Shown: positions 8,230 to 48,136, numbered from the stretch's first letter. The stretch is 64,000 bases of DNA from a virus (IMGVR_UViG_3300006226_001703:1-64000), one strand, 5' to 3'. Numbers and translations are program-made. Notes: generated by a model from the sequence alone, not told the origin.

Positions 8230-8682
8230 CTAATCAAATAATTCTGAACTACTCAGAGCTTTCCTTAATCTTTTATTTTCAGCTTCAAGTACTTCTACTT
8301 TCTTTTCTAATTTGTTGCATATTCTGTGAAGTTTATCAACCTCTCCAAAAACTTCTTCCATAACTCTATCTACGTAATGTTCTTGCATTTCTGCAAATAT
8401 ATGTTGAATCACAGCGGCTTTATCCTCATCACCAAACACTTTCATTAAGTCGTCCATCTCTGGAACATATTTTAAGTCATTGAAATTCTTTTTCTTTTTG
8501 CTTTTTTTCGTATCGGCAGGGCCAAAATCTTCGCCATCATCATCTCCTGGACCTATCGCTGTAAGAAGCTGGTCTATCTCATCCTGAGAAAGCACTTCGG
8601 TGAAAACTATTTGATTCTTACTTTTTAGATGACCTAAATCATAGTCTGTGAGGCTATTCAAATCTATCGTTCTTTTATACAT
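8230..8682 (-). CDS. FliM N-terminal (CheY-binding) peptide-bearing protein with C-terminal coiled coil
   Basis: aa 28-43 TEVLSQDEIDQLLTAI match the FliM N-terminal LSQxEIDxLL motif; remainder is not FliM; ends ...SELFD. Confidence 0.8.
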   Translation of the reverse strand: MYKRTIDLNSLTDYDLGHLKSKNQIVFTEVLSQDEIDQLLTAIGPGDDDGEDFGPADTKKSKKKKNFNDLKYVPEMDDLMKVFGDEDKAAVIQHIFAEMQEHYVDRVMEEVFGEVDKLHRICNKLEKKVEVLEAENKRLRKALSSSELFD

Positions 8683-8707
8683 AATAGTTAGTAGCTATAT
8701 TAACCAA

Positions 8708-8733
8708 TAAAAAAGCCCCTCAAATGAGGGGCT
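8708..8733 (-). terminator. Rho-independent terminator after the 8741..9298 gene
   Basis: GCCCCTC/GAGGGGC stem (8715-8732) followed by a T-run on - strand. Confidence 0.75.
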
Positions 8734-8740
8734 GTAGTTT

Positions 8741-9298
8741 TTACTTATCAAATAAGGCTGGATTGCTACTATAATCCTGGTCACTTTGTGTGACTTGGGA
8801 TGTAGCTCCCTTACTTAATTTTGGATTGTGTCCATTTGGCACGCCGTCAGGTTTTGGGCCTGCTGATTTTCCACTGTCATAGTGTCCACCAGGTGGGATG
8901 CCATTTGCCTCTCTAAAAATCTTTTCAAAGAGTTTTGGGTTTGTGTCATAATCTTGTCCACTTTGTGTTACCTGTGATGTTGCACCTTTGCTAAGTGGAG
9001 GATTGTGCCCGGCTGGAACACCATCGTTCTTATTGTCAAGTCCACCTGTCCATTGATTTCCACCATATTTAACATCGGCTTCTCTTAGTCGCTTTTTTGG
9101 TGCTGGTCTTAAATTACCAGACTCGTCGTAAATACTTTCAAAAAGCTTTCTAAATTTTGGGTCGATTAAGTCGTCTACATTCTCGAATAAGTCTTCCCTA
9201 CCCTTGTAGATTTCATTAAAAGACCTACTGTCACCTGAGTCATAAAGTTGAATCGCTTCTTCTCTTAAATGTGTAGGTCTTGCCATCATACCCTCCAA
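8741..9298 (-). CDS. putative head/core protein with internal duplication
   Basis: two copies of GVPxGHNPxLSKGATSQVTQSxQDY; LRE sites. Confidence 0.55.
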   Translation of the reverse strand: MEGMMARPTHLREEAIQLYDSGDSRSFNEIYKGREDLFENVDDLIDPKFRKLFESIYDESGNLRPAPKKRLREADVKYGGNQWTGGLDNKNDGVPAGHNPPLSKGATSQVTQSGQDYDTNPKLFEKIFREANGIPPGGHYDSGKSAGPKPDGVPNGHNPKLSKGATSQVTQSDQDYSSNPALFDK

Positions 9299-10573: not shown

Positions 10574-10713
10574 TTTTTTTCTCCTATATAAAGTCTTGCC
10601 ACATTTTACATTTATCGCATTTACGCATTCGTTTAGGTGTGATATTACACAAAGGCCAAAGAGCTGTGACGCAATTCTCTTATTTAATTAGTTATTTATA
10701 ATGACTAATTTAT

Positions 10714-12969: not shown

Positions 12970-12972
12970 AGC

Positions 12973-13012
12973 AAAAAAAGGACCCCGCCATCAACGATGG
13001 ACAGGGCCCCCA
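12973..13012 (-). terminator. terminator between convergent terminase and 13031..13870 genes
   Basis: GC-rich imperfect hairpin around CCATC/GATGG with a T-run on - strand. Confidence 0.6.
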
Positions 13013-13030
13013 AAGGGAGGCTAGTTTAGT

Positions 13031-13870
13031 TTAGAAGTTCCATACCCGGATGTCTTCAATTTTCACATCCTTGTCCCACTTCTGCCTTCTTTCGAATTCC
13101 TTCTGGATGGCAGCCTGGCGAAGAACCTCATGGTTTTCAAGGGTCCGTAAGTGGGCCCAGTCGAACCTTACTGCTTGCTCCGCAGAGACGGAGTTTTTGC
13201 TTGCATCCTCGTGCTCGTAGTGAACTACAAACTTGATGCTCTTGTCATTAATCTTGGTAACAGTTATTTTGGACCAGTTGTTGGAGCGGGCCCTGGCATA
13301 ATTGCCGTTCAAGTCGTACATGTAAGTTCCGCCAACACGGAATCCGATATCAGCTTGTCTCTTCATTTCCTCAAGCTGTTTGATGTCGTCGTTTATCTGC
13401 CACTCGTTCCGGAGGTCAGTGTTCCACGCACCAGGGCTTTCCAGTCCATTAAAAAGTTCCGCAATTTCGTGATTATTCATCTGGATGCTGGAAACTGTCT
13501 GGGCAACTCTTTGGCTCCAGTCGAGGAAGCGGGTGATGTCCTTCTCTCTGTTTGAGGAGTGACTCACTTCAGTTATAGTTGAACCGCCGTCCTTGGCGAC
13601 ATTCAGTTTCATTTCAAATTCGTTGTACCTTTCATCTGGATTAAGGTTGAAAGTTAACCGCCACTGGGTAATCCCGGGCTCGTTTCTCCAACTGTCATTG
13701 TCATAGGAACGAAGGTTTAATGTACCCTCAAGGTTGCTGAAAAAGCCACGAACCTTTTCACTGTTCCGAACGGACATTTCATTTGAAATTGTCTCACGTT
13801 CGAGCTGGTATGCCTTGAGTTCCTCAAGTTCCTTATTAAGTTTTTCAATTCCTCTTTCATAGTTTGTCAT
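13031..13870 (-). CDS. hypothetical early protein (visibly more GC-rich than neighbours)
   Basis: 279-aa ORF with own promoter motif, GGGAGA RBS and terminator. Confidence 0.75.
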   Translation of the reverse strand: MTNYERGIEKLNKELEELKAYQLERETISNEMSVRNSEKVRGFFSNLEGTLNLRSYDNDSWRNEPGITQWRLTFNLNPDERYNEFEMKLNVAKDGGSTITEVSHSSNREKDITRFLDWSQRVAQTVSSIQMNNHEIAELFNGLESPGAWNTDLRNEWQINDDIKQLEEMKRQADIGFRVGGTYMYDLNGNYARARSNNWSKITVTKINDKSIKFVVHYEHEDASKNSVSAEQAVRFDWAHLRTLENHEVLRQAAIQKEFERRQKWDKDVKIEDIRVWNF

Positions 13871-13877
13871 GTTATTC

Positions 13878-13930
13878 TCTCCCTTTAACTTGATAATAAT
13901 ATATAAGATGGATAGAATTGATGTTCAAAA
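13878..13930 (-). promoter_or_regulatory. class I (early-type) promoter/RBS block TTTTGAACA-N14-CTTATATATTA
   Basis: 34 bp (13878-13911) identical to 33397-33430, with the same spacing to TTTTGAACA. Confidence 0.7.
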
Positions 13931-13948
13931 CTTCTACTAATTCTTATA

Positions 13949-14344
13949 ATGAGATTATTTGAAGAAATAGCCGAATCTACAGCAAAAAAGGCCCTCAAGA
14001 AGCTATATAAGGATTTAGGCTTTTATGTGAATATTGATGGAAACTTTGAGTCTGGTTGTGTTGTCAATGTTAGTGACACAGAGAATGAGTTTGACTTTTT
14101 TGATAAGAATTCGTCTGGAATATCATTTGGGATTATTCAAGATGATGGAGATATTACGATAAACTTTTGGTCGATTAGATTAGCGGATCATTACAAAGGG
14201 CATGGATTAGCCCGCAAGTTTATTGATGGTTATGTTGATATTCTTAAGCCAAAGAGAATAATAGCAACTGACGTAGCTCAAGAAGGCTTTTGTCAGTGGT
14301 TAGAAAAAGCTTACCCAAATATTGATGTCGTTATTGAAGATTAA
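13949..14344 (+). CDS. GNAT-like acetyltransferase
   Basis: SIRLADHYKGHGLARKF resembles the GNAT acetyl-CoA-binding motif A. Confidence 0.5.
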   Translation: MRLFEEIAESTAKKALKKLYKDLGFYVNIDGNFESGCVVNVSDTENEFDFFDKNSSGISFGIIQDDGDITINFWSIRLADHYKGHGLARKFIDGYVDILKPKRIIATDVAQEGFCQWLEKAYPNIDVVIED

Positions 14345-14769
14345 AAGCCCTTGAATTCAGGGAGATCCTTTTCTAAAAAAGTCATTTGAAGATCCATAAT
14401 ACCAAGTTGGACTAAACTTTCATCAACTGATTTATCTTCGAGAATAACTTCTTCAGGTAATTTTCCTTCTGAAATTAGCCGCTTAATAAACTGAGGAAAA
14501 AAGTTAGCAGCTTCTTCTGCTAATCCAAAAACTTCTTTACTGTAATATGGAAATATAAAACGTTGTTCTGAAATCCTTTTCGCAACCTTTGGGCATAACA
14601 ACTTAAACTTCAAACTATTAAGTTCATCCACTTCTTCAATAACCGGTTTGCCCAAAAAGACTACACATTGATAGAGTGCAGTTGAAGCTGCTCTTCCACC
14701 TCTTTGTGATTGTTCCTTATCTCGTTGTATCAATTTACTAAAATCTAATTTTTCACTCATATTTGCCAT
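14341..14769 (-). CDS. hypothetical protein
   Basis: 142-aa ORF coupled to GroEL stop. Confidence 0.7.
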   Translation of the reverse strand: MANMSEKLDFSKLIQRDKEQSQRGGRAASTALYQCVVFLGKPVIEEVDELNSLKFKLLCPKVAKRISEQRFIFPYYSKEVFGLAEEAANFFPQFIKRLISEGKLPEEVILEDKSVDESLVQLGIMDLQMTFLEKDLPEFKGF

Positions 14770-16418
14770 TAATTTATACCGTCCTCATTTAATACACTAT
14801 CTAAAGATTCTATATACATATTTGGAGCGTCAGTTACTATTACAGTTTCAACACTCATAAATTGTTCAGTCATATTAGTTGCATATGTTACACTGTTCTT
14901 AATTACTTCATAGGGGTCAATTATCCCAGATGCAACCATATCAGTTAAGTTCCCTTCTTTTGAATTATAACCACTCTTATTATCTAATGCTAAAATTTCC
15001 GGTATGATAGACTCATGATCAGCACCAGAAGAATTGATTAGAATCTTAGCAGGCGCTTTTATCGCATTAAGAAATGCCTTAACAGCTGCAACATGATTTA
15101 AGCCAACGGATAATTCTTTTCCACCTTTGTAAGCAATTCTCAATAATGGAGTTCCACCACCAGGAATAAAACCACCAGTTAAAGCAGCTCTAACTGCATT
15201 GACAGCATCCTCATATCTATCTTTCTTTTCTTCTAATTCAGTTAACGTAATACCACCAACATAAATTGTTGCAATGCCGCCAGTCATTTTAGCAATTCTT
15301 TCTTTTATCGTTTGTAATTGATATCCAGAATAGCCAATTTCAGTTCCTTCATAATCAACTTTAGCTCTTAATTGTTCGATATGTTTGTTGTATCTTTCAT
15401 CATCAAAGTGAGCGCCAATAATTGCTGTCTTATCTTTGTTAATAATAACTTGTGTTGATGTACCAAGATATTCTTCCTTATAATCATTTAACTCAAAATC
15501 ATAATACATAATTTTAGCATTAGTCATAACAGCTAAATCTATCAAATTATCATTTATGTTTTCACGAGACACACCAGGTGCTAAAACTAATGAACCAATT
15601 ACAGTTTTCTTATTTAACATATCACGAAACCAAGCCATTACTTCATGAGAAAAATCTGGTGCAATTATTACGATTGGTTTTTTGTTTAATTGGAGAGGCT
15701 GAATTATCAGTTGTAAATCTTCGACATCATTTAACACTTCAGATGAGAACAGGAAGTTGGGCTCTTCTAAAATGCATTGGTCATGGGATGCATTGATACA
15801 TTCACTTGACAAAAATCCTCTATCAAATTCTAATCCAGATCTCGTTTTAACAGCTGTTTCACCTTTACGAGATAAGCTATCTGCTAGAGTTACAATGCCA
15901 TTATCACCGATGGAGATAAAAGCTTGCTTAACTGTTTCAGCAATTTCTAAATCGTTATTAGCCGAAGTTTTCGCTATATTGAAAATATCATGTTCATTTT
16001 CTATTTCATGTTTATAAGTTACTAATTCATTTAACACATAGTCACTAGCAATTTGAAAACCTTCTTTTAAGTGATTGATGTCAATACCTTTCACTAAAAG
16101 TTTGTAAGCCTCTTTACATAATTCAGCAGTCAAAATAGTTACTGATGTTGAACCATCACCACCCATAAAATTGCTTTTACCAGCAGCCTCTTTGATTAAC
16201 ATTGCTCCAAAGTTTTTGGCCTCATCTGAAAACTTTAATTCCTTTGCAACAGTTATACCATCTTTTGTAGTTCTAAATGAGCCGCCTTTGTCGAATGCTG
16301 CTGTTCTACCTTTTGGTCCATAAGTTGATGCGACAGTTTTTGATACTTCTAATATTCCATCGAGAACTCGTTGTCTACCTTCGTTACCTCTAAATATCTT
16401 TTTTCCATACGTTGCCAT
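14769..16418 (-). CDS. groEL: chaperonin GroEL
   Basis: TYGPKGR, TKDGITVAKE, GDGSTS, FDRG, IKERIAKMTGG, YEDAVNAVRAA, PGGG, GIIDP motifs. Confidence 0.95.
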   Translation of the reverse strand: MATYGKKIFRGNEGRQRVLDGILEVSKTVASTYGPKGRTAAFDKGGSFRTTKDGITVAKELKFSDEAKNFGAMLIKEAAGKSNFMGGDGSTSVTILTAELCKEAYKLLVKGIDINHLKEGFQIASDYVLNELVTYKHEIENEHDIFNIAKTSANNDLEIAETVKQAFISIGDNGIVTLADSLSRKGETAVKTRSGLEFDRGFLSSECINASHDQCILEEPNFLFSSEVLNDVEDLQLIIQPLQLNKKPIVIIAPDFSHEVMAWFRDMLNKKTVIGSLVLAPGVSRENINDNLIDLAVMTNAKIMYYDFELNDYKEEYLGTSTQVIINKDKTAIIGAHFDDERYNKHIEQLRAKVDYEGTEIGYSGYQLQTIKERIAKMTGGIATIYVGGITLTELEEKKDRYEDAVNAVRAALTGGFIPGGGTPLLRIAYKGGKELSVGLNHVAAVKAFLNAIKAPAKILINSSGADHESIIPEILALDNKSGYNSKEGNLTDMVASGIIDPYEVIKNSVTYATNMTEQFMSVETVIVTDAPNMYIESLDSVLNEDGIN

Positions 16419-16420
16419 AT

Positions 16421-16807
16421 TTATACCTCTAATGTTGTTATAGTTTCAATTTCTTTTTTACAGTCCTCATAATCTTGTATGATTGACTTATATAATGATT
16501 CAATAAAGTGTTGTTTGAACTTAGTTAAAGCAAGTTCATTTATATCTTTTTGAATTGTCATAATTTCTGAATCAATATCTTCTTTCTGTTTGAATAAGTG
16601 TGATAATTTACTAAAAATCTCTTGTGATTTATCACATTCACAATACATCTTCCAATTATTTTCAAACTTAGTAACTTGCATTTTTCCCTCACAAAAAGGA
16701 CATAATGCTTCTTCACCTTCCAAATTAATGTAAGTGCTAGAAATTGAATCTTTCTGATGTATGATGCCCCTTTTTATGAGGACTATTAGTTCTTCTCTAT
16801 TAAACAT
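16421..16807 (-). CDS. Zn-ribbon/coiled-coil hypothetical protein
   Basis: CPFC...CEC motif. Confidence 0.65.
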   Translation of the reverse strand: MFNREELIVLIKRGIIHQKDSISSTYINLEGEEALCPFCEGKMQVTKFENNWKMYCECDKSQEIFSKLSHLFKQKEDIDSEIMTIQKDINELALTKFKQHFIESLYKSIIQDYEDCKKEIETITTLEV

Positions 16808-16822
16808 ATACTTTTATATTAA

Positions 16823-18676
16823 CTAATCTTCTACTACTTCAGAAATGTAATTCACTATTTCATCAGCAGAGAAATTTGAAAAATATTCTCCATCATCTTT
16901 ATATATAAGCGGCTTATCTTTAATACTTAACAATGACAAATGCTCCAAGAAAACTTCTTTTGCTTTTCGACTAAACTTTAATTGTCCGCTTGCTTCATCT
17001 GGTGAGTTAACGAACTTACCCTGCTTGTCGATACAAAGTTTAACGAAATTAATTGCCTTTTCAATTATCTCAGGAGTTGCTCTTCCAAAACGATATCTAA
17101 TTGTGTTGCTTCTCACTTGACGGGGTGGAACAATTTGTTGTTGATACTTAATCTCTCTAGTTGGACGTACTGTTACTTCTTCTGGGATATCTACAACTTG
17201 ATCAACAACCGATTCTTTTTCCTCGGTGTATGCCGCCATTTCTTCCATTGTAGTTGGTAATGGTGGAAGTTCTTCTTTTTCCCATTGTGTCAACTTTTCT
17301 TCTATGACTTCCATTGGTTGCGGTTGAGCTTCTGGTGCATCAGCAGGAAAAAGTCTATCAAAATCTTTAATAGTTGATTCAACTGCTTTTTTCATATCTG
17401 GAAAAGGTGGCTGTTCTGGAGCAGGATATTCTTTCTTTTTTCTTGGCTTTCGTTTTTTAACAGGTGGAGGAGGCGGGTCATTCTCAGGTGGCCTATACAA
17501 TGGGTTTGGGTCAGGCTCACCTAATACTAATGGTTCCTCATCTTCATCAATAACTGTCTCTTTAACTTTTGGAGTTGGGTTTTCATTTATTACGTAACCA
17601 ATATCTTCATCAGCATATAGTTCGATAATTTCATTGAATGTTCTATCTTCTGGTAATGAGCGTTTGAAATACTTCAAGATTAAGCCATTTATTCTAACAG
17701 CAGGGGCACATTGGAAAATAGTTAACTCTAATAAAAGTGATGCTAATAACAATATGAAAATCTTAATATGTTCTGGCGGGATTCTTCCACCAGTGTAGTT
17801 ACTAAAACCTTCAAACATATAAGTGAGGCCTTTGTCATGAATGATTTTGATTTCTTCATTCTGAATTTGTTCAGTCAATATGATTAATGCAATATTTCCA
17901 TTTGTTGCTTCAACATCAGCTTGTTCAATTAACATTAAAAGCTCATCATTTAATATTGATATTTGTCCTTCCATATCACTTTTTGATGCTTCAAATGTTG
18001 CTTGAATTCTAGTTCTTTCTGCCTCTGCTCTATTTCTAGTAGCTCTAACTTGAGTTAAATATGTTGACTGTGCTTGAAAGGCTTGATTAGCTGCAACCCA
18101 TTCTTCTGATTCTCTATCCATTATGTTGTCACGATCTAACCTTAATTGTGCAAATCTTGCTTCAGCTGCTCTAACGAGTGAATCTTCTTCCATCCAAATT
18201 TCATTTGCTGTTATCCAAGGTTGAAACTCCATGTATGTTGCAACATTTGCTGATTGACGTATGCTTACTATTTCATCCATTTTGTACTCAATAGCAGCTC
18301 GTCTTGATAATAGGATCTCTAAACCTGAATCTCTAATAGTTTGGGTTCTTGAAGTGATATAAGTTGAAAAACCAAGTGATGCTATAACGGATAATAAGCC
18401 ATAGACTAGATACCAACTGAATAAAGTGCGCGACTTTCTCAATAGTGGCTTGTAATTCAATTTTAGATATAGTGATTTTACGACATTAATAGAAATGACT
18501 GTAGTGAGTTTAGCACCTTCCAACGCAAGGGAAAGCGCTAATAAGAGATATGTCCAACCTGGGTCTAACGCAGTGAACAAAAACACATTGAACATAGCAG
18601 ATGCAATAGCTGCTATAATAAATGCTAGATACCTAGCCCCAATGTAAACATTGGAATCTGATAAAACTTTTTTCAT
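16823..18676 (-). CDS. membrane protein with coiled-coil and Pro-rich regions
   Basis: three N-terminal hydrophobic segments, LEGAKL, coiled coil, a further TM segment, Pro/Glu-rich tail. Confidence 0.7.
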   Translation of the reverse strand: MKKVLSDSNVYIGARYLAFIIAAIASAMFNVFLFTALDPGWTYLLLALSLALEGAKLTTVISINVVKSLYLKLNYKPLLRKSRTLFSWYLVYGLLSVIASLGFSTYITSRTQTIRDSGLEILLSRRAAIEYKMDEIVSIRQSANVATYMEFQPWITANEIWMEEDSLVRAAEARFAQLRLDRDNIMDRESEEWVAANQAFQAQSTYLTQVRATRNRAEAERTRIQATFEASKSDMEGQISILNDELLMLIEQADVEATNGNIALIILTEQIQNEEIKIIHDKGLTYMFEGFSNYTGGRIPPEHIKIFILLLASLLLELTIFQCAPAVRINGLILKYFKRSLPEDRTFNEIIELYADEDIGYVINENPTPKVKETVIDEDEEPLVLGEPDPNPLYRPPENDPPPPPVKKRKPRKKKEYPAPEQPPFPDMKKAVESTIKDFDRLFPADAPEAQPQPMEVIEEKLTQWEKEELPPLPTTMEEMAAYTEEKESVVDQVVDIPEEVTVRPTREIKYQQQIVPPRQVRSNTIRYRFGRATPEIIEKAINFVKLCIDKQGKFVNSPDEASGQLKFSRKAKEVFLEHLSLLSIKDKPLIYKDDGEYFSNFSADEIVNYISEVVED

Positions 18677-18709: not shown

Positions 18710-18964
18710 TTAGTCATCTTTTCTTTCGGAAGGAGAAAAAACTTTAGTTACCCTAATTCCATAGTTCTCGTCAATACTTACGACTTCACCTTCTGCGTAC
18801 TTAACGTTATTCACATAAACTGTAACAGGCTCGTCAGCATTTTTATCCAATTCGACAATAGTACCCACGCCAAATTGAAGGATATCTTTCACATTCTTTT
18901 TTACTGAGCCCAACCTTGCTGTTAGTTCAACGTTAACATTCTGTATGTTTTGATAATTATCCAT
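18710..18964 (-). CDS. fliN: FliN/FliY C-terminal (SpoA/FliMN_C) domain protein
   Basis: VELTARLG..KKNVKDILQFGVGTIVELDKNADEPVTVYVNNVKYAEGEVVSIDENYGIRVT is a textbook FliN domain. Confidence 0.9.
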   Translation of the reverse strand: MDNYQNIQNVNVELTARLGSVKKNVKDILQFGVGTIVELDKNADEPVTVYVNNVKYAEGEVVSIDENYGIRVTKVFSPSERKDD

Positions 18965-24900: not shown

Positions 24901-26683
24901 TGGCATAATTTTGCAGAATCTTAAAATTCCAAAGTTTATTGATAGAGAATCTCTATTAAGAAGAATTGATGATAATACTGAAGAATATTATGACCTTCAT
25001 ACAACTCCAACATTTGATGGAGATATGCCAGAACCTGGCGATAATTATATCGTTGGCCACCTTGATATAACTTATACAGATAATCCTTATAAAGGACTCA
25101 TGTGGTGGAACCCAGATGATTCTTATCCAAAAACACCAAATATAAAGGGAAGATGGGAAGCAGTAAAAGATGAAAGATTATTTCCAGATGGATTTACAAC
25201 TAAGTTAGACAATGGAAGAATAGCAGTTGATTTTAGTCATACTTATTTTACTGAATTGGAATCAGAACTTGAAGGATTACATGAAGATGTAGAAAGAATT
25301 GATGAAAAATTAAATGATATAGATGAAGATATAGGTGAAATCAACGGAAGAATTGATGGTGTCGAGGAAGATATAGAGACACGTGAAAGTACACTACGCG
25401 GAGAAATAACAGAGCATGTTAGTACTCTTGACGGAAGAATTACTACTGAAGTTTCTACTATCAACGGAAGAATTGATGGTGTCGAGGAAGATATAGAGAC
25501 ACGTGAAAGTACACTACGCGGAGAAATAACAGAGCATGTTAGTACTCTTGAAGGGGAAATTAGTAGACTTGATGGAGATATAGATCGAATTGATAATGAT
25601 ATTGACGGAATAAATCAACGAATAACTTCAGAAGTTACAAATGGTGTTAACAGAAATAATACTACTAACACAAAGTTTGATACAATAACAGATACAATTA
25701 TTTCAAATGCTAATCTTGATAAACAAAATAGATTCCGCATTGTAGAAGATAATACTGAATTAAATGCAGCTACACCAAAACAAAACAAAGACTTGTTTTA
25801 TAAGAGAGATACATCAAGATTATTTGTACAAGATGATGACAAATTAGTTGAATTATATCATCCAATAAAAGCATTCGATGATGTTAGTGAAATAACTACT
25901 GACACATTACATCGAAAAGAATTGGGCTATAATAAAGATAACAGAAGACTTTATTTACATGATAGAGACAAAATTGAAGAATTATATACTCCAAGAATTC
26001 CAAATAGAGCTTCACATGTTATTAGCTATGGTTTTAGTCACACATTTACTGGTAGAAATCAATTATTTGGCGGACAAAATCAACCAATAAACTTAAGTGA
26101 AGGTCATGTCCAAGCAAGATTTGAAGGACCAGAGGCTGGTTCATTCTTTACTTTAAACTTTCCGCAAGATCATTTTTGGATTAGATTCATTTGGTCTAAC
26201 TTAGTAACTGAAACTGAATACACACCTTTTAGAATGGCTTTAGCTTGTAAAAACTTTGATCAAGGAGAACATGCTGAAGTTATAATTAACACAGTTACTT
26301 ACAACTGGAATACTCAAACATCTAATCCTCCTGGATATTTAGAGCAGGGGATTGATGGTGGTATCGGTAACTTTATGACAACTTATTTGAGAAGAATTCA
26401 AGCTACACCAACTACTGATAGTGCATGGCAGTCAATTAAAGCTAATAATATTTTCTCAGTACTTTATGATATGATTGATATTAAGATTAGATTTATTAGA
26501 TCAAATATGTTCTATTATTTCAGATGTTTCCCAGATGTAATAAGTTATAAACCTGATGCTGTGTTACCTGATGAAGTTAGAGTGCCAAGGTTAAACTTCT
26601 ATGTAGATTGTTACAAACCAAATGCATTGCCACAGGCTGACCCATTTATTGATATCGTTTATAACGTTCAAGATTTTAATTAA
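21884..26683 (+). CDS. long modular tail fibre-like protein (start probably 21902)
   Basis: follows baseplate gene; five WW(N/R)-containing repeat modules separated by acidic coiled coils; distinct C-terminal domain. Confidence 0.65.
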   Translation: MGEEGIMISIIQLINDEQSLIEGDVVLKNGQLAWTTQPNNEGELFIGTEDGYVKVAVSVAFSLRLEQLIGELQDVVEIIGDDIELKVEQAKLLLQKIKEARDFILETIETEITNVEARSKTYTETYVDAKTADNIYMNSNKDITITTYINNIRDNLQGQIDNLITDFASLDDNIDERIRVAKKSVDDRIDALNGETLPANDTDEDYSVNDFIRDSISGSNTYTNTRLLEFTKIPLRKDFESELRGNIAQGYEPVRHWKEGKAGDFYFVKELDIRYPGFKGIMWWNPNGGGDGDGDWETEMDQSLIPDGVTLLVGDDEKIKINPNSQIFIDIKNYNDTTNTTTLTQAKAYVDNLLLQNLKLPGFVNFESDLIGMGWDHEGTPKGGVAFEEGNPGDNYYIRELDYTDREIKDLTKRRQGRAWWNPKKPRTDTIDGNWEIVPDKQLFPDSITTKLDGNGQIAVIEDAEYLETIRGSITSVDSKFVTITTNLNTKIDTREAAIRSDAALMKTNLENRMDGLDLATNEKFEGEIDRVETESKTRDGNLNTKIENVDIALRTFATQHITRINGEIAESNGRIDDAEDEIDRVETESKERDTALDNKILALSGENIPGCLDEDTIQDAKDMTINEYTRSLFEEAKEHADEIVLNNLRIPGKIDRESRLRNKDAITGIYYNMHQQTGYTGEPPKHGENYIVEDLDITYPVHGDERKHQGKMWWNPDKKYTGSDIEGKWELVRDEKIFADDDTIITNDTTGLIEVNIEAEYLGNIRSSISDTNTRIDELHGSNLNIDDEDETKTIKEYVDDSIENFDIDLTERFLSFTKVLKRTDLESNFRGDGGTKPFKDGEIGDIYIVKNLDVSHPGFKGIMWWRSGTDLGPNGKGLWEIEKDETLLPDEDELIYKADGTITLNPDSELLQAIYAQITTEVGELKTEIEEEIIEPITTDITTLEGRANDLDEAIERIDETIEELDGNKIKATFELDEDREDAYGKTINEYIESLYQAALDHTNGIILQNLKIPKFIDRESLLRRIDDNTEEYYDLHTTPTFDGDMPEPGDNYIVGHLDITYTDNPYKGLMWWNPDDSYPKTPNIKGRWEAVKDERLFPDGFTTKLDNGRIAVDFSHTYFTELESELEGLHEDVERIDEKLNDIDEDIGEINGRIDGVEEDIETRESTLRGEITEHVSTLDGRITTEVSTINGRIDGVEEDIETRESTLRGEITEHVSTLEGEISRLDGDIDRIDNDIDGINQRITSEVTNGVNRNNTTNTKFDTITDTIISNANLDKQNRFRIVEDNTELNAATPKQNKDLFYKRDTSRLFVQDDDKLVELYHPIKAFDDVSEITTDTLHRKELGYNKDNRRLYLHDRDKIEELYTPRIPNRASHVISYGFSHTFTGRNQLFGGQNQPINLSEGHVQARFEGPEAGSFFTLNFPQDHFWIRFIWSNLVTETEYTPFRMALACKNFDQGEHAEVIINTVTYNWNTQTSNPPGYLEQGIDGGIGNFMTTYLRRIQATPTTDSAWQSIKANNIFSVLYDMIDIKIRFIRSNMFYYFRCFPDVISYKPDAVLPDEVRVPRLNFYVDCYKPNALPQADPFIDIVYNVQDFN
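25340..25551 (+). repeat. 92-bp perfect direct repeat, 120-bp period
   Basis: 25340-25431 identical to 25460-25551; encodes INGRIDGVEEDIETRESTLRGEITEHVSTL twice. Confidence 0.9.
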
Positions 26684-27375
26684 GATTTTTTGGGGTCTAG
26701 TAATAGACCCCATTTTTTTGTTTCAGTATCTAATTCAATTATTTTATCGTGCTTTCCAGTATCAATAAAAATCAAACTATCTTTATTGTCACTTAATCTT
26801 TCACGAGGATTATCATCACTTTCAGTATGCCCAACAACTTGATTATAACCTTTAATAGCAGTACGAATTAAAGCACCAGGTCTAATCCAAAGAGGGCCTT
26901 CATTTAAGTTGTTGCCATACCCGTCTGGTCCAACCCATCTGAAGAAGTTGGGCCTTTCCTTAAAGAGTTGATTGATTTCTTGAGGCTCTTTAATGCCTGC
27001 TGAACGCATCCACTTATATGAGACACCACCGTGGCTAAAAATATAGCTATCAAAAATAAAGCAAACATCAAATACATTTTTATTTTCATCAAAAAATTCC
27101 TTAATATCTATAGCATGAGTAGGTTGATATCCACTGCATCTTTCATCGAGATAATATGATGTGTCATGATTAGCCCAACATAAACAAACTTTTTCTGGAT
27201 TTGATCTCTTGAACTTAATTATCTCTTTTGCATTGCCCATTTGTTTTGGCCATTGATTTGTCCAAGTGTCAAAAATATCTCCGAGGAAAACTATCTTGTC
27301 ATAAGAGTTAATGAGTTTAATTGTTTTTTTCCAGTGTTCAGATTGATGAATATCTGGGATTGCTATTATTTTCAA
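26680..27375 (-). CDS. calcineurin-like metallophosphoesterase
   Basis: PDIH, LGDIFD, WANHD, SHGG, VVGHT motifs. Confidence 0.85.
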   Translation of the reverse strand: MKIIAIPDIHQSEHWKKTIKLINSYDKIVFLGDIFDTWTNQWPKQMGNAKEIIKFKRSNPEKVCLCWANHDTSYYLDERCSGYQPTHAIDIKEFFDENKNVFDVCFIFDSYIFSHGGVSYKWMRSAGIKEPQEINQLFKERPNFFRWVGPDGYGNNLNEGPLWIRPGALIRTAIKGYNQVVGHTESDDNPRERLSDNKDSLIFIDTGKHDKIIELDTETKKWGLLLDPKKS

Positions 27376-27737
27376 AGTGTCTCCAATAATTTTAATTGTT
27401 CTCTTAATCTATTAGTTAATTCTCTCTCATGAGCAATTTCTTGTTCATATTCATTAATCATTTTACTCATAGCATCTTCTAAAGCTTTGTACTTTAAAGT
27501 TATCATTGTCATTTCAACTCTCATTCTAGAAGCATCTTGTGAAGCCTCACCACCATTAGTAAACACAGCGAATCTGTCTGGTCCACCACCAGTAAAGCCT
27601 CCGCTTTCATGTTCTTTAAATGCTCTAATATGTGCAATTTCTTGTAAGTCTTCAACTGGGATATCTATAATCTTATCTAATCTATCATCAATGAGCGAGT
27701 TATCTTTTAATGCAATTGACAACGCATATTTAGCCAC
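27372..27737 (-). CDS. hypothetical coiled-coil protein
   Basis: 121-aa ORF, GTG start. Confidence 0.65.
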   Translation of the reverse strand: MAKYALSIALKDNSLIDDRLDKIIDIPVEDLQEIAHIRAFKEHESGGFTGGGPDRFAVFTNGGEASQDASRMRVEMTMITLKYKALEDAMSKMINEYEQEIAHERELTNRLREQLKLLETL

Positions 27738-27891
27738 TTAATTTTTCCAATATGAAAACAAAGGCAACAATTACAGCAAATACTAAAACTATATGATACA
27801 ACATAATACTGCCCAAATTAAGCATGTCTCTTAAAGTCCACTTAATTTTTCCGCTCCAAGTTACTTTGTAATTTCCTTTGTCAATAGTCAT
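27730..27891 (-). CDS. small membrane protein (53 aa, not in ORF track)
   Basis: hand translation MTIDKGNYKV...LYHIVLVFAVIVAFVFILEKLSG; fills the gap with overlaps. Confidence 0.5.
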   Translation of the reverse strand: MTIDKGNYKVTWSGKIKWTLRDMLNLGSIMLYHIVLVFAVIVAFVFILEKLSG

Positions 27892-28115
27892 TTCTTTTCT
27901 CCCACAATTAGTCTATCGCTTTTTCTTTTATTTCCATATTTGTCAGCATCTTCTTCATATGCTTTTAATCTGTTCTCTATCTCTTTTTGAATTGCCAAAG
28001 TTAGTGTGTCTTGTCTAGACTCTTCTAATGTTTGGCTAGCTATTTTTATCGTGTACCATTCTACTAAAGTGCGGACGCTATATCTGTGTAAATACTTGAT
28101 ATCCGTTATGTCCAT
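27888..28115 (-). CDS. hypothetical protein
   Basis: 75-aa ORF. Confidence 0.65.
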   Translation of the reverse strand: MDITDIKYLHRYSVRTLVEWYTIKIASQTLEESRQDTLTLAIQKEIENRLKAYEEDADKYGNKRKSDRLIVGEKK

Positions 28116-28119
28116 AATC

Positions 28120-28410
28120 TTAATAAGAAACTCTTAACCAAAGGTCTTTGTCTTCTGACTCCTCTTCATCTACTTTGTAATTAGCTTTTTCTAATTCATC
28201 TTTTACAATATCAAATGCCAAATCTGTTATTTTGTTGACTGTAATTCTAACAACTAATTCATTATTTGATCTGGCCAATTTAAGTTTTTCATTTAGTAAG
28301 CAAATTATGTCACTTGCTTCCTTAATAGCTCGCTTATCATAATTGTCAGTTGGAAGTTGTAAAAGTTCATCTCTACTTACAAGTTTTGGCCCACCATATT
28401 TTAGCGTCAT
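28120..28410 (-). CDS. hypothetical protein, paralog of 30923 and 31317 ORFs
   Basis: shared LVSRDEL...NEKLKLAR...ELEKANYKV pattern. Confidence 0.65.
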   Translation of the reverse strand: MTLKYGGPKLVSRDELLQLPTDNYDKRAIKEASDIICLLNEKLKLARSNNELVVRITVNKITDLAFDIVKDELEKANYKVDEEESEDKDLWLRVSY

Positions 28411-28718
28411 TTTATTCTCCTTACTTGACTTATTGGAATCGGTGTAAAGACTTTAAATTCTTGAATTACATCATTAGGCCCAGCTTCTTTTTGCTCTTTT
28501 AAGAAATTAACATCAAACTGGTCAAATGGTCTACCTTTAAATTCGTAATCAACTTCTAAAAGCACATCAGTTTTCCAACCATTGAAAGAAAAGTTTTCTC
28601 CCCAATCAACTTCGGATAACGAAATAAACCCATAATTCCCGCCAAGCCACCCATCTAGACAACCTGACATTTGAATTTTTCTCCAATTTTCTTCTGTAGT
28701 TCTATGTAATAATTTCAT
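28407..28718 (-). CDS. possible ADP-ribosyltransferase-fold protein
   Basis: LLHRT...ISLS...QEFKVFTPIP matches the H-x-T / S / E layout of small ART-fold proteins. Confidence 0.4.
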   Translation of the reverse strand: MKLLHRTTEENWRKIQMSGCLDGWLGGNYGFISLSEVDWGENFSFNGWKTDVLLEVDYEFKGRPFDQFDVNFLKEQKEAGPNDVIQEFKVFTPIPISQVRRIK

Positions 28719-29119
28719 CTTATCTCAAATTGTAAATCATTATAATGGTTGTCATACTTCAGAATATTATGAAGTTGGTCTAACCATTTTTTATCGCCAA
28801 TCATTAATGGAGTTATTTCCCAAGCATTTTTATTTTGAACTAAATCTTTAGCTTCTTTTAAGCCAAATTCTTTTACTTCTAAATTGCTATATTTTTCTCC
28901 AAACTCTTTGTGTAAGTTTCTAATAGTTTTAATAACAGATATTGTGTACTCTTCATTAAATGATTTTAAGAATAAAGCTGCTTTTTGAGATTTAGTTTTT
29001 TCAAGTTTTCTGTTAACTTTTAATTCGTAACCTCTGTCAACTAATTGTTGAGATAATTCGTAAAATTCATCACTGTCTAATTCATCAAATAATTCTAATA
29101 TATGTAGAACGTCTTTCAT
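28715..29119 (-). CDS. ribosomal protein bL12 C-terminal-like domain protein
   Basis: ISVIKTIR...GLKEAKDLV resembles bL12 KIxVIKxVR...GLKEAKDLVE, with an insertion. Confidence 0.6.
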   Translation of the reverse strand: MKDVLHILELFDELDSDEFYELSQQLVDRGYELKVNRKLEKTKSQKAALFLKSFNEEYTISVIKTIRNLHKEFGEKYSNLEVKEFGLKEAKDLVQNKNAWEITPLMIGDKKWLDQLHNILKYDNHYNDLQFEIR

Positions 29120-29122
29120 ATT

Positions 29123-29470
29123 TTAATCCAATAAATGTAAAAAATTAGCTCGTAAGTCTTGCCATTCCTTTTTATTTAATAAGCTTCCCAATATATGTAA
29201 AGTCATTCTTGGGTTATTTCCTTTTTGAATTGATAGCACTGCTTCCTTTTTAATTTCGTCAAGCTCACTGTTTATCAAAGGTTTTAATATCTTCTTAACA
29301 TCTTTACTATCAGTTCCATCAATAACAAATCTCAAACCATACCAAAAAATATCTCTATTGTTTACTTCTTCAACATGTTCGTTAGTTTCATCCTCCAAAG
29401 CCAAGAGCCCCTCTCGTCTTGCCTTTTCCGATAGACTTAAAGCCTTAATAATAAAATTTATCTTTTCCAT
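29123..29470 (-). CDS. soluble MotA/PomA cytoplasmic-domain-like protein (no TM helices)
   Basis: SEKARREGLLALED...GLRFVIDG joined directly to AVLSIQKGNNPR, which in MotA are the cytoplasmic loop and C-terminal tail. Confidence 0.8.
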   Translation of the reverse strand: MEKINFIIKALSLSEKARREGLLALEDETNEHVEEVNNRDIFWYGLRFVIDGTDSKDVKKILKPLINSELDEIKKEAVLSIQKGNNPRMTLHILGSLLNKKEWQDLRANFLHLLD

Positions 29471-29475
29471 AGTAA

Positions 29476-30069
29476 TTAGTCCCTTGATTTGAATGAGATT
29501 CCAGCATAGTGTTTTTCAATCGCATGAATTGAAATTGGCTTATAATCTATCTGCTCAACTGAAACGTTATAATAAAGATTCTTATCAGAATCATGTTTGA
29601 ATATCCTGTGTTCTCCAATATGAAGATGTCCATGAATATTGACTCTGCAACTATTTGCTTCGAGGAAAACTGGCTCATGTGAAAGAATCATGTAGTTATT
29701 CCAAATAATTGGATGTCTGCTTGCCCATTCAAAGCCAAGTTGCATGTAATCTGTTGCTCTATAAGCATCATGATTTCCACATATCAACATTTTTCTTCCA
29801 TTTAATTGATAAGCCATATTGGAAACTTTTTCTTTATTGCCCAAACAAAAATCGCCAAGCATGTAAACGATATCATCATGTCCCACTGTGTTATTCCAGT
29901 TTTGAATCAACTTGTAATTCATTTCTTCCACATCTTTAAATGGACGATGACAATACTCGATTATCTTAGCGTGATGAAAATGAGTGTCGGCTATAAAGAA
30001 AACTTTATTGGCCACAATTTCCTCCATAAGCTCCATCGTGACAATCACCAGCTTCGCAACAATCATCAC
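29476..30069 (-). CDS. calcineurin-like metallophosphoesterase (start possibly GTG at 30015)
   Basis: ADTHFHH, LGDF, GNHD, SHEP, HGHLH. Confidence 0.85.
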   Translation of the reverse strand: MMIVAKLVIVTMELMEEIVANKVFFIADTHFHHAKIIEYCHRPFKDVEEMNYKLIQNWNNTVGHDDIVYMLGDFCLGNKEKVSNMAYQLNGRKMLICGNHDAYRATDYMQLGFEWASRHPIIWNNYMILSHEPVFLEANSCRVNIHGHLHIGEHRIFKHDSDKNLYYNVSVEQIDYKPISIHAIEKHYAGISFKSRD

Positions 30070-30232
30070 AAGGATAACTTTTATCTAATTCTTTTTCACC
30101 CTCAGAAAATTTTTGCATTAAATCTGTGTGAAAATCATTTAATTGCATTCCAGTTCTCATATTGATTATAATCCATTCAAGATAAATTATATGTAATAAC
30201 TTGAATTCATCTTCAGTTAAATCTAAAGTCAT
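30005..30232 (-). CDS. hypothetical protein, Cys-rich tail
   Basis: 75-aa ORF. Confidence 0.55.
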   Translation of the reverse strand: MTLDLTEDEFKLLHIIYLEWIIINMRTGMQLNDFHTDLMQKFSEGEKELDKSYPCDDCCEAGDCHDGAYGGNCGQ

Positions 30233-30498
30233 GCTTTATAATCTCCACATTTATGGCAATGAGGACAATCAAATTCACAACAACAATCTGGGCAAGCAGG
30301 CCTATGAACTTTTGGAGTTGGGGCTCGTGGTGGTTCTGGTGGCCTTGGTGCACGAGGGTCATGTGAAAATCTTAAAATTCTTTCTTCCATCTCTTTTTCT
30401 TTTTGGAGCTTATTAAACAATTCTTTGAAATAACCTTCTTGCTCTAATTCTTTAAAAGCTTGTTTGAAAATAGATTTTATTTCAGCTTCACTTTTCAT
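30229..30498 (-). CDS. hypothetical protein, Pro- and Cys-rich tail
   Basis: CPDCCCEFDCPHCHKC. Confidence 0.55.
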   Translation of the reverse strand: MKSEAEIKSIFKQAFKELEQEGYFKELFNKLQKEKEMEERILRFSHDPRAPRPPEPPRAPTPKVHRPACPDCCCEFDCPHCHKCGDYKA

Positions 30499-30913
30499 TA
30501 TTATTTTTCGTTTCCTTTGGTTGTGGCTTCTTTTCTTTCTTAAACTCTCTACAAGGCTTTTCTACCATAGTTTTATTTGGCGCTTTTTTATCTTCCTGCA
30601 TTATCTCTCTGAGCATTGTTTTCACTTCCTCACGAGGGAGTTGAATCTTTGTAGAAGACCATTGATGGAAACCATGGGGATTAGAGTTTTGTCTCGTTTC
30701 AATTTCAAATTGTCTTTCAGCCTCAGCCCAAACTATGTCTGCCACTTCTTGAATAGCATTCATACTTAATTTAATAAGCTTTTTTCTGTCAACAATATCT
30801 GAGTCAACTCCATCTAAACATAAAGTGTCCGCTGCAAAAATGCTCACTTGTTGTTCTAACAAGCGAATTACATTTTTTGAAAATGGACCTTTAATGTGAT
30901 TTTTTCCAAACAT
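30488..30913 (-). CDS. hypothetical protein
   Basis: 141-aa ORF, AGGAG RBS. Confidence 0.7.
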   Translation of the reverse strand: MFGKNHIKGPFSKNVIRLLEQQVSIFAADTLCLDGVDSDIVDRKKLIKLSMNAIQEVADIVWAEAERQFEIETRQNSNPHGFHQWSSTKIQLPREEVKTMLREIMQEDKKAPNKTMVEKPCREFKKEKKPQPKETKNNNEK

Positions 30914-30922
30914 TTTAATCTC

Positions 30923-31339
30923 CTATTTAAAAAATGATATTATCCAATCTTTTCCTTCTAGAGGACCAGTCTTACTAAATGATTTAGCTGAACTTATTTC
31001 ATAACCTGCACTTGATAATACGTCAGCAACTTTAAGCAATTGTTGTTCATCAATACTTAAATGTTTTCTAATATCATCAACACAAATTTGCCACCTACCA
31101 GCCTTCCTAGCTTCTATTAGTTTTTCATTTACAAAGTTAACAAAATCATTAAACTGTTTAACCCATAATTCTTTACAATTATATTTTTCTTTTAATTCTT
31201 CCTTAGTAATAAATCTTGGTATATCACCACCAAACATTTCTTCATGATATTTTTCTTTAGCTAAACCCATTAAAACTTCTGATGCGAAATTATAGATTTC
31301 ATTATCATCATGATTGTCACTCATTGTCTTCTTCCTCAA
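30923..31339 (-). CDS. hypothetical protein, paralog family
   Basis: FITKEEL...NEKLIEARKAG...VLSSAGYEI. Confidence 0.65.
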   Translation of the reverse strand: MRKKTMSDNHDDNEIYNFASEVLMGLAKEKYHEEMFGGDIPRFITKEELKEKYNCKELWVKQFNDFVNFVNEKLIEARKAGRWQICVDDIRKHLSIDEQQLLKVADVLSSAGYEISSAKSFSKTGPLEGKDWIISFFK

Positions 31340-31589
31340 ACTTTATATGAATATGCATTCCCAACGGAACTATTTTGTAACCCAAATTATATAAGTCATC
31401 TAATAGACGCTTTTTATTTTCTTCATAATGAATCATTTGGTCAATACAAAACATATAAGCATCTTTACCTTCATCACGAGCTTCTTTTAATTCCTTATTC
31501 AAATAGATTTTAATTTTGCTATACTCTGATGCTATTTTTCTTTTTGGAACTCTCTTTAACAATTCATCTTTTGATATTAAATTAAACAT
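31317..31589 (-). CDS. hypothetical protein, paralog family
   Basis: LISKDEL...NKELKEARDEG...DLYNLGYKI. Confidence 0.65.
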   Translation of the reverse strand: MFNLISKDELLKRVPKRKIASEYSKIKIYLNKELKEARDEGKDAYMFCIDQMIHYEENKKRLLDDLYNLGYKIVPLGMHIHIKFEEEDNE

Positions 31590-32293
31590 TATTCATCCCC
31601 ATGTTCGTATGGATTTTTACTTGACACACCTGATGCTTGAGCTTCTGCTCTAGTGTTTGCACTTAATGTGTTTAGCACAAATGAAAAACGTTCCCATCCA
31701 GTCATTAAGTGGTTAATTGTGTTGTACTTGTTTTCAGCAATAATAACATTAGCTTTTAATCTCGCTAAATCTGCCATCCATTGTTTTCTAACATACATCT
31801 CAATCTCACGAGCAGCTGTAAAGTTGGCACTCTTACCCAATGAAACTTGTTGCTGTTTAACTTCAACATATTTCTGTGCATAAAAGTTTTCATACTTTTC
31901 TTCTGCTATAGATTTTTGAATTCTACATTCTTGATGCAAAGTTATTAAGCCAAATAATACGCTTTCATATTGCATTAGTGACTGATTCAATGCATAAAAA
32001 GTTGGCTCAGAACTTCCACCAAAGAGTAAGTTTTGATTCATCAACTCAATCTGTTTTTGAACAAACTTAACAAGCTCTTCCTCTGCCTCTTGATAAGTCA
32101 ATTCAGTTGCAATTTCTGGCGTTGTGTAAGTGCCATCTTTTGTCATAATAAAATTGACTTCACCTCGTTCAGTGTTGTCTTCAATTTGTTTGCCCAATTC
32201 ATTAAGCCCGCGCTCATATTGATTATGCTCTTCAACCGATGCAGGCGGATGCTCGTTTTCAACTGGTTTTCTTCTAACTACTTTTTCAGACAT
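31589..32293 (-). CDS. UvsY-like recombination mediator (tentative)
   Basis: helical C-terminal half EIEMYV...ENKYNTINHLMTGWERFSFVLNTL resembles UvsY. Confidence 0.4.
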   Translation of the reverse strand: MSEKVVRRKPVENEHPPASVEEHNQYERGLNELGKQIEDNTERGEVNFIMTKDGTYTTPEIATELTYQEAEEELVKFVQKQIELMNQNLLFGGSSEPTFYALNQSLMQYESVLFGLITLHQECRIQKSIAEEKYENFYAQKYVEVKQQQVSLGKSANFTAAREIEMYVRKQWMADLARLKANVIIAENKYNTINHLMTGWERFSFVLNTLSANTRAEAQASGVSSKNPYEHGDE

Positions 32294-47435: not shown

Positions 47436-48136
47436 TGAACTTATTAGTTAGTCAAGTTTTATTTTGATGAAACTTTTAACATTCCCAATTTCTTTGCTAT
47501 TCTTCTATTATTTCTTAATTTAATGATATTTTCTATTTCTTCTCTTTTTCTTTCTTTTCTAACATTATTTATAATTTCTTTTATTATTTTTAATCTTTTA
47601 TTGTCTTCAACTTTTTTTCTATAATCTTCTATTCTTTTTTGATCTTCTAATAATTTCTTTTTATTCTTATATTTTCTTTTTCTAACATTATAAAAATTAT
47701 TATGCCCGCCTTTCATTATGTTTAAGTATAAAGGATCTTTCAATATTTTGTCAATAAATTCTTCCTCTAATTTATTTAATTCATCAAAAGAATCAGCCCA
47801 AGCTAAAACTTCTATTTTGAAATTCTTTGTGCCATATTTTCTTATTATATCTCTTATATATCTTCCTGACCCAAAATAATGAATATCTAAAATAGGACTT
47901 GAATGTTGACCAATATAAAATCTTTCGTATGGATGATTTTCCGTAGGAGGGACGGTTGTTTTATAAACATAACCAAAATATTCTTTTTCCATTTGTTTAA
48001 TTCCTTTTAAGTGGTTACCACGCCACTATAATAATTAGTAAAAAAGTTAGGCGGAACCAAATGTAATTCCGCCAAATAAAGGTGGTAACTTTATCTGTCC
48101 TTTTATATTTAGTTTAAATATGAACTTATTAGTTAG
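47436..48136. repeat. 16-bp perfect direct repeats flanking the GIY-YIG cassette
   Basis: TGAACTTATTAGTTAG at 47436-47451 and 48121-48136. Confidence 0.85.
47459..47992 (-). CDS. GIY-YIG (Seg-like) homing endonuclease
   Basis: GYVYKT...FYIGQH...YFGSG...LEEEFI...YLN. Confidence 0.85.
   Translation of the reverse strand: MEKEYFGYVYKTTVPPTENHPYERFYIGQHSSPILDIHYFGSGRYIRDIIRKYGTKNFKIEVLAWADSFDELNKLEEEFIDKILKDPLYLNIMKGGHNNFYNVRKRKYKNKKKLLEDQKRIEDYRKKVEDNKRLKIIKEIINNVRKERKREEIENIIKLRNNRRIAKKLGMLKVSSK

Follow-up and report, generated by a model that had tools for sequence, protein, structure and literature searches.

A phage-borne, membrane-free MotA stator domain from an undescribed family of soluble domains associated with FliG C-terminal domains

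Why would a virus carry a piece of a flagellar motor? The question is raised by a small gene in a 64,000-nt stretch of viral DNA (IMGVR_UViG_3300006226_001703:1-64000, hereafter the window), which appears to encode a part of the stator protein MotA without its transmembrane (TM) helices. The window belongs to an 86.6-kb IMG/VR record, which is classed there as a provirus and is estimated by CheckV to be 26% complete. The virus is taken here to be a bacteriophage of spirochaetes, probably those of the termite gut, although its host is inferred rather than identified. The preliminary description, made from the sequence alone, reported a soluble MotA with deleted TM helices and proposed it as a motor clutch or brake. 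The observation itself is confirmed by the analysis, as described below.

The ORF is real, lies on the minus strand and encodes 115 aa. It is the eighth in a run of about 15 small, co-directional genes, which are tightly packed or overlapping and include 2 calcineurin-like phosphoesterases (one assigned to phrog_547 and the other to Pfam Metallophos), the remaining ORFs having no family assignment. An RBS-like AAGGGA is located 9 nt upstream of the start codon. The motif ACTAATTA, which lies directly before the start codon, is not enriched in the window (6 found, 4.6 expected), and a promoter and terminator scan of 26-34 kb gives no more sites than shuffled sequences. The sequences KARREGLLALED, GLRFVIDG, and AVLSIQKGNNPR are present at residues 16-27, 45-52, and 77-88, respectively. 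An identical protein is encoded on contigs from at least 3 metagenome samples. Coordinates of all features are collected in the table.

Table. Position of the gene, its parts, and associated features of the same phage (numbering of the window)
Positions	Strand	Feature
29123..29470	minus	115-aa ORF encoding the soluble MotA cytoplasmic domain (MotA-cyt), stop codon included
29468..29470	minus	Start codon (ATG)
29123..29125	minus	Stop codon
29276..29464	minus	Residues 3-65, segment derived from the MotA TM2-TM3 cytoplasmic loop, carrying the KARREGLLALE helix
29417..29419	minus	Codon of R18, equivalent to E. coli MotA R90
29393..29395	minus	Codon of E26, equivalent to E. coli MotA E98
29258..29275	minus	Residues 66-71, short junction at the place of the TM3-TM4 hairpin
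29162..29257	minus	Residues 72-103, segment derived from the MotA C-terminal cytoplasmic tail (KEAVLSIQKGNNPR...)
29480..29485	minus	RBS-like AAGGGA, inside the 3' end of the upstream phosphoesterase gene
26680..32293	minus	Run of about 15 tightly packed or overlapping genes
29476..30069	minus	Calcineurin-like phosphoesterase (phrog_547), upstream neighbour
26680..27375	minus	Calcineurin-like phosphoesterase (Pfam Metallophos)
18710..18964	minus	Associated feature, not part of the gene: stand-alone 84-aa FliN/SpoA domain
8230..8682	minus	Associated feature, not part of the gene: 150-aa protein with a FliM N-terminal LSQDEIDQLL peptide followed by a coiled coil

According to sequence searches, the protein is the cytoplasmic domain of MotA. 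NCBIfam equivalogs for MotA, MotP, and PomA match residues 5-97 with E-values from 1.5e-10 to 2e-5, the best score, however, being 40.5 bits against a full-length cut-off of 340. A phmmer search of PDB sequences returns only stator A subunits (8UCS, 6YSF, 9LU9, 8GQY, 6YSL, 8BRD, and 6YKM), and the match comes in 2 pieces: residues 3-75 align to MotA 77-140 (the TM2-TM3 loop) and residues 66-103 to MotA 216-253 (the tail after TM4) of 8UCS/6YSF, with E 1e-8. In contrast, Pfam gives only sub-threshold noise (DpnII-MboI and HEAT_2) and no MotA_ExbB (PF01618) hit, PHROGs yields one weak hit to a family of unknown function (phrog_21194, E 0.005), and tblastn and megablast searches of the INPHARED phages return nothing. 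No 19-residue stretch reaches a Kyte-Doolittle value of 1.6, i.e., there is no TM helix. An HMM built from 38 family members matches about 70 genuine multi-TM MotA proteins from many phyla in 2 separate pieces as well (HMM positions 11-70 on MotA ~78-140 and 74-120 on MotA ~215-275), while the phage protein and its relatives match in one piece. This is what excision of the TM3-TM4 hairpin predicts.

Structural comparison supports this conclusion. The AlphaFold2 model built with the family alignment is an all-helical soluble bundle of 8 helices with pLDDT 94.5 and pTM 0.88. Its 10 best Foldseek hits in PDB are all MotA or PomA chains (TM by query 0.67-0.77), and an ESM Atlas structure search likewise returns MotA clusters with TM 0.82-0.83 and hints at FliG_C-containing clusters in Bacillota. 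Re-alignment with VIA-align yields Z 16.7, rmsd 1.9 A over 105 residues, and 39% identity to MotA residues 75-260 (chain 8ucs_G) in the MotAB-FliG complex 8UCS, whereas the first unrelated chain scores Z 4.6. A predicted fold unrelated to the MotA cytoplasmic domain had been named in advance as refuting the identification, and this condition does not hold. As for the charged residues that contact FliG, a profile alignment of the family to E. coli MotA places R18 on R90 and E26 on E98. Taken alone this alignment is weak (E 0.018) and is used for residue mapping only, but it agrees with the much stronger PDB and NCBIfam alignments. R18 is invariant in 38 family members, while K16, A17, E20, G21, L22, and L23 are nearly invariant. 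The pairs R90-D289 and E98-R281 are the published electrostatic contacts between MotA and FliG (PMC7564593).

The gene is not a one-off. A word-indexed search reveals about 106 short (95-166 aa) TM-less homologues with 37-59% identity and E-values from 6e-22 to 1e-9, almost all from metagenomes, with 2 named Spirochaetia or Treponema MAG proteins. An exhaustive search of cluster representatives gives 412 hits (127 with E <= 1e-10), and many of the best are long proteins having 2 to 6 tandem MotA-cyt domains. Among 136 representatives scanned with Pfam, 43 also carry FliG_C, 29 carry LRRs, 7 FliG_M, 3 DnaB_C, 2 TPR, and 2 MORN. According to the HMMs constructed in this study, 53 of 146 have FliG_C in the same chain and 134 of 146 have no TM-like segment. 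Cultured Treponema primitia ZAS-10 has 4 such genes besides its real motA, one of which encodes an 805-aa FliG_C-LRR-2xMotA-cyt protein. The family is, however, patchy: it was detected in 4 of 301 genomes sampled across the phylum and in 26 of 201 genomes (about 13%) sampled from the family of T. primitia.

A tree of single-domain members separates all soluble domains from membrane MotAs with SH-aLRT 98, and the copy from the window lies inside the soluble clade. Since the tree is based on only 122 columns, deeper order within the family is not resolved. The loop of Treponema MotA is strikingly similar to the soluble domains, which makes an origin of the family from a spirochaete motA likely, although this remains an inference. 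The preliminary description had cautioned that similar soluble domains may exist in spirochaete chromosomes and that the gene could thus be a captured host regulator. Its caveat was correct, as such domains do exist there and the phage copy nests among them rather than deriving directly from a membrane MotA.

The usual partner of the family is a FliG C-terminal domain. In 4 of 4 independent metagenomic host contexts the start of the MotA-cyt gene overlaps by 4 bp the end of a 170-178-aa gene whose C-terminal half is FliG_C. Of 20 single-domain loci taken from species genomes, 16 have evaluable flanks, among which 7 have the FliG_C gene immediately upstream, 2 are FliG_C-MotA-cyt fusions, 1 has a FliG_C protein immediately downstream, and 6 are orphans. 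The possibility that these host orphans are prophage genes was rejected, since their neighbours are ordinary chromosomal genes and share nothing with the 2 phages. The FliG_C-only family comprises about 80 clusters, of which at least 15 seem to lie on the same contigs as MotA-cyt genes, judging by records of equal size in the 2 lists. It aligns to E. coli FliG 237-325 with 99.2% probability, keeps R281 and R297, and has an invariant E-D at D288/D289. Its model superposes on FliG_C at about 1 A, while its ~65-residue beta-beta-alpha-beta N-terminal domain found no match in a whole-model Foldseek search, which was dominated by the FliG_C half. Thus, both halves of the torque-generating interface exist as a soluble, translationally coupled pair. 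The torque helix of the flagellar FliG of 2 family genomes (NMSKRAAQMLKEDMEFMGPVR) is almost identical to the FliG_C-only consensus NMSKRAxQMLKEDMEYMGPiR, and a MotA-cyt domain that recognises one should therefore be able to recognise the other.

The phage copy is an orphan. Neither PF01706 nor a profile of the FliG_C-only family matches anywhere in the 86.6-kb record, and the downstream 134-aa gene is not a diverged FliG_C. Given the estimated completeness of 26%, however, a partner could lie in the unseen part, and association with FliG_C is frequent in the family but not universal. The protein forms a clade (SH-aLRT 99) with 2 family members, P0014 and P0145. P0014 lies on a 3.2-kb contig that is syntenic with the window and shares MotA-cyt (47% identity), Metallophos (59%), and 3 further small ORFs (28-47%). 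The gene has thus been kept through substantial divergence of a phage lineage with every family-invariant residue intact. These phage copies share a truncated N-terminus, a shorter junction in place of the TM hairpin, and a distinct C-terminal tail. A second, unrelated virus record (IMGVR_UViG_3300005201_000042, 86 kb) carries a 127-aa copy, which groups with host sequences elsewhere in the tree and whose 12-kb neighbourhood shares only the MotA-cyt gene with the window, as well as another, frameshifted copy. Capture by phages therefore happened at least twice.

The same phage encodes 2 other pieces of the flagellar switch. The stand-alone FliN domain (Pfam FliMN_C, E 3.7e-25) is 53% identical to the C-terminus of the flagellar FliY/FliN of 3 Treponema-family genomes, which lies near motA in those genomes, and only 44-45% identical to non-flagellar FliM/N paralogues. 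The 150-aa protein contains the peptide TEVLSQDEIDQLL, which corresponds to the CheY-binding N-terminus of FliM and, over residues ~21-62, is 62-72% identical to the N-termini of 344-351-aa ORFs (FliM) in the 3 genomes; only weak Pfam hits of the coiled-coil type are reported for the remainder. Both pieces point at the real motor and at CheY-P.

Based on these results, the gene appears best explained as a stator decoy. The analysis establishes the identity of the domain, its fold (from a confident model), retention of the 2 FliG-contacting charges, membership in the soluble family, pairing of that family with FliG_C, and conservation of the gene in related phages. What is inferred, in contrast, is binding and its consequence: in the infected cell the orphan protein would bind the torque helix of a FliG_C domain through the same Arg/Glu surface that a membrane stator uses and would compete with the resident partner. 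The flagellar rotor is considered the most likely target, since its torque helix is almost identical to that of the soluble partners, the co-carried FliN and FliM-N mimics are closest to the flagellar orthologues, and only a minority of the sampled family genomes carry the soluble module, whereas flagella are general in these spirochaetes. In this view, the protein would lower stator-rotor engagement in a brake- or clutch-like manner as part of a phage kit that interferes with motility and chemotaxis. The whole statement is tentative, with a probability of roughly 0.45. The chief argument against an effective brake is that the native MotA-FliG contact is weak, electrostatic, and made by a pentameric, membrane-anchored unit, so that, as inferred from the established 5:2 stator structures, a soluble single domain may bind the rotor poorly unless it is abundant or oligomeric. 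Moreover, the phage copy descends from the soluble family and its specificity may be tuned to the paralogous FliG_C modules, while being an orphan is not specific to phages. The interpretation given in the preliminary description is therefore only partly supported: the TM-less MotA domain and the R90/E98 equivalents hold, clutch or brake activity at FliG is one of at least 2 live readings, since the cognate partners of the family are soluble FliG_C-only or FliG_C-fusion paralogues and not necessarily the rotor, and the suggested competition for stator assembly has no support, because the domain lacks the TM helices that hold MotA5B2 together.

The main rival, which seems unlikely but survives, is a decoy against the host's own soluble modules. 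On this reading FliG_C and MotA-cyt are a heterotypic docking pair, copied from the rotor-stator interface, that assembles soluble multi-domain proteins (LRR, TPR, FliM/FliN paralogues, and nucleases) into a defence or conflict system or a regulatory one, and the phage protein would cap the FliG_C docking surface and block that assembly as an anti-defence or anti-regulator decoy. The position of the phage copy within the soluble family, its full set of family-conserved residues, and the strong coupling of the family to FliG_C and to LRR and TPR domains agree with this possibility. Some loci also look like defence islands: a WYL-WCX regulator lies directly upstream of the pair in one metagenomic context, a PDDEXK_4 nuclease and ORF6N lie downstream in another, and an Exo_endo_phos gene lies upstream in a third. 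One T. primitia contig holds WYL, a DEDDh exonuclease, 2 EEP nucleases, a PtuA/AriA/GajA-like ATPase, 2 FliM+FliN paralogues, a FliG_C ORF, and an LRR-2xMotA-cyt protein in one co-directional cluster. Other loci, however, sit among housekeeping genes (LepA, MFS and ABC transporters in 4 loci), and an MCP gene lies next to the pair in the remaining metagenomic context. None of the FliG_C, MotA-cyt, or FliM/N proteins themselves hit a PADLOC model, no NTPase or effector is consistently linked to the module, and the co-carried mimics are closer to the flagellar proteins than to the paralogues. The most far-reaching form of this reading, in which the pair wires LRR/TPR sensors, FliM/FliN paralogues, and nucleases into a new kind of cytoplasmic anti-phage machine in termite-gut treponemes, is less likely still, although not excluded.

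An adaptor or localisation role, in which the phage would use MotA-cyt to dock itself or a phage complex onto the subpolar flagellar C-ring or onto FliG_C-bearing scaffolds, for example to position replication or assembly, without inhibiting anything, appears improbable. The domain does occur as a modular unit in up to 5-6 tandem copies with very diverse partners, which is how adaptor domains behave, Pfam finds DnaB_C in 3 of the 136 representatives, and BLAST picks out 2 MotA-cyt proteins (P0217 and P0255) carrying such a DnaB-like RecA-fold ATPase domain. The phage protein, however, is a bare single domain with nothing attached to be localised, no phage partner has been identified, and the fusions found are few and of unknown origin. 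Finally, a functionless passenger, i.e., a recently captured host gene fragment, which might be suggested by the surrounding small accessory ORFs without known function and by the frameshifted copy in the second phage, is very unlikely in view of the retention of the gene at only 47% protein identity with invariant residues and a confident predicted fold, the independent acquisition by a second phage, and the identical protein in several samples.

The MotA-FliG contact is where flagellar torque is generated, and it has been hard to study because it is weak and exists only in the assembled membrane machine. Here, soluble, well-folded copies (as judged from models) of both halves are encoded by host genomes as overlapping gene pairs and fusions, and at least 2 phage lineages carry the stator half alone. 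Searches of the literature, whose coverage was incomplete and which are thus no proof of absence, returned no paper on soluble MotA domains, FliG_C-only partners, or phage stator mimics. If the phage protein binds the rotor, it would be, as far as these searches show, the first reported phage-encoded inhibitor acting by stator mimicry, and together with the FliN and FliM-N pieces it would be evidence that phages of spirochaetes actively manipulate host motility and chemotaxis. If it instead targets the soluble FliG_C modules, it points to an unknown cellular system built from recycled flagellar switch parts. In either case the pair offers a minimal, soluble model of the rotor-stator interface for structural and biophysical work and a directly testable hypothesis.

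In comparison with phage-encoded mimics of host interaction surfaces in general, the gene similarly encodes a small, orphan, single-domain copy of one half of a host protein-protein interface carried among early or accessory phage genes, but no described phage decoy copying a flagellar stator domain was found. As for the flagellar brakes and clutches, i.e., EpsE (the B. subtilis glycosyltransferase clutch acting on FliG) and the PilZ brakes YcgR and MotI (DgrA) acting on MotA/FliG, the proposed site of action (the stator-rotor interface) and the proposed outcome (reduced torque transmission) are the same, both being inferred from established knowledge of these proteins and PMC10140304. There is, however, no sequence or fold relationship: no PilZ, YcgR, or glycosyltransferase hit is reported by Pfam at E up to 1, and no c-di-GMP sensing module is present. 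The phage protein would act by mimicry of the stator itself, a mode not described for any known brake, and it is phage-encoded rather than cellular.

With the unnamed soluble family of the T. primitia lineage (for example, hypothetical protein AGMMS49579_07310 and the 805-aa protein of ZAS-10) it shares the domain boundaries of a ~110-125-aa TM-less domain and the motifs KARREGLL, RDIF-YG, DGTD, and KEAVLSIQ-G-NPR at 45-59% identity, all invariant and nearly invariant positions being kept. It differs in lacking the ~10-residue N-terminal extension and 7 linker residues present in most host members (alignment columns 92-98), in its C-terminal tail, and in the absence of a FliG_C gene from the available record. 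Compared with the stator subunits MotA, PomA, and MotP, represented by Pfam PF01618 and by NCBIfam PRK08124 and relatives, it has the cytoplasmic domain built from the TM2-TM3 loop and the C-terminal tail, including the helix with both charges, but none of the 4 TM helices, of which TM3-TM4 form the ion pathway together with MotB, and hence no ion channel, no MotB partner, and no basis for the membrane 5:2 complex. No motB/pomB gene is adjacent, the neighbours being a phosphoesterase and unknown small ORFs. According to these features and its sub-threshold scores, the phage protein is not a member of the functional MotA stator family; it is, however, a clear domain-level homologue.

CheckV estimates the 86.6-kb record at 26% complete, which would imply a very large (jumbo-size) phage genome, although IMG/VR labels it a provirus. 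The block of small genes that contains the MotA-cyt gene is bracketed by two calcineurin-like phosphoesterases, assigned to phrog_547 and Pfam Metallophos, respectively, and the Metallophos gene is 59% identical in the related phage fragment L113. As for the second phage record (IMGVR_UViG_3300005201_000042), it has two MotA-cyt copies, of which one is intact (127 aa), while the other is split over two frames (HMM positions 1-49 and 45-117) and is thus apparently frameshifted.

In Treponema primitia ZAS-10, one co-directional cluster (locus L115) contains a TPR protein, a WYL-WCX regulator, a FliM+FliN paralogue (498 aa), a DEDDh/RNase_T exonuclease, an EEP nuclease, a TPR protein, a second FliM+FliN paralogue (478 aa), a PtuA/AriA/GajA-like ATPase, an EEP nuclease, a 196-aa FliG_C ORF, and an LRR-2xMotA-cyt protein, and it looks like a defence or conflict island built around flagellar-switch paralogues. 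In the metagenomic locus L008, four consecutive genes encode a FliG_C-only protein (170 aa), MotA-cyt (128 aa), a FliM+FliN fusion (420 aa), and a FliG_N/M-only protein (151 aa), with an Exo_endo_phos gene just upstream. Together, these four genes make a complete "soluble switch complex plus stator face" set with FliG split in two.

Coordinates of the features in the phage window, the second phage record, and the loci and proteins compared with them
Sequence	Position	Strand	Feature
Window	8230-8682	-	Protein with FliM N-terminal peptide
Window	18710-18964	-	Stand-alone FliN/SpoA domain
Window	26680-27375	-	Calcineurin-like phosphoesterase (Pfam Metallophos)
Window	29476-30069	-	Calcineurin-like phosphoesterase (phrog_547)
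IMGVR_UViG_3300005201_000042 (G500, record of L092)	28629-28978		MotA-cyt copy
IMGVR_UViG_3300005201_000042 (G500, record of L092)	47458-47805		MotA-cyt copy
L115 (T. primitia ZAS-10, G001:C88)	1-18000		Cluster with flagellar-switch paralogues
L008	4163-6861		Four-gene soluble switch set
FliG_C-only proteins (profile A4, model m535bb2b95223)	residues 1-65		N-terminal beta-beta-alpha-beta domain

In the FliG_C-only proteins, the FliG_C domain is preceded by a conserved N-terminal domain (motif VVTAYGH..TIDKIAVS.F ... YC.TINSLELKGDSW.FAK), for which a Foldseek search with the whole model gave no clear match. Two metagenomic proteins, P0217 (380 aa) and P0255 (379 aa), join an N-terminal MotA-cyt domain to a DnaB_C-type RecA-fold ATPase and are 27% identical to the DnaB-like helicase of this phage. 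Structure neighbours found in the ESM Atlas include a cluster of 309-aa "FliG C-terminal domain-containing" proteins, commonest in Bacillota, and a 108-aa cluster in Thermodesulfobacteriota, which suggests that soluble MotA-cyt-like domains may exist outside Spirochaetota.

Regarding the other two flagellar-switch pieces of the phage, the 150-aa protein carries a FliM N-terminal peptide of the CheY-binding type (TEVLSQDEIDQLLTAIG...), followed by an acidic/lysine-rich linker and a C-terminal coiled coil, and, judging from sequence alone, it could be an oligomeric CheY-P sponge. The peptide is 62-72% identical to the N-termini of the FliM genes of three Treponema-family genomes. The 84-aa FliN/SpoA domain (Pfam FliMN_C, E 3.7e-25) is 53% identical to the C-terminus of flagellar FliY/FliN in three Treponema-family genomes, in comparison with 44-45% for non-flagellar FliM/N paralogues.
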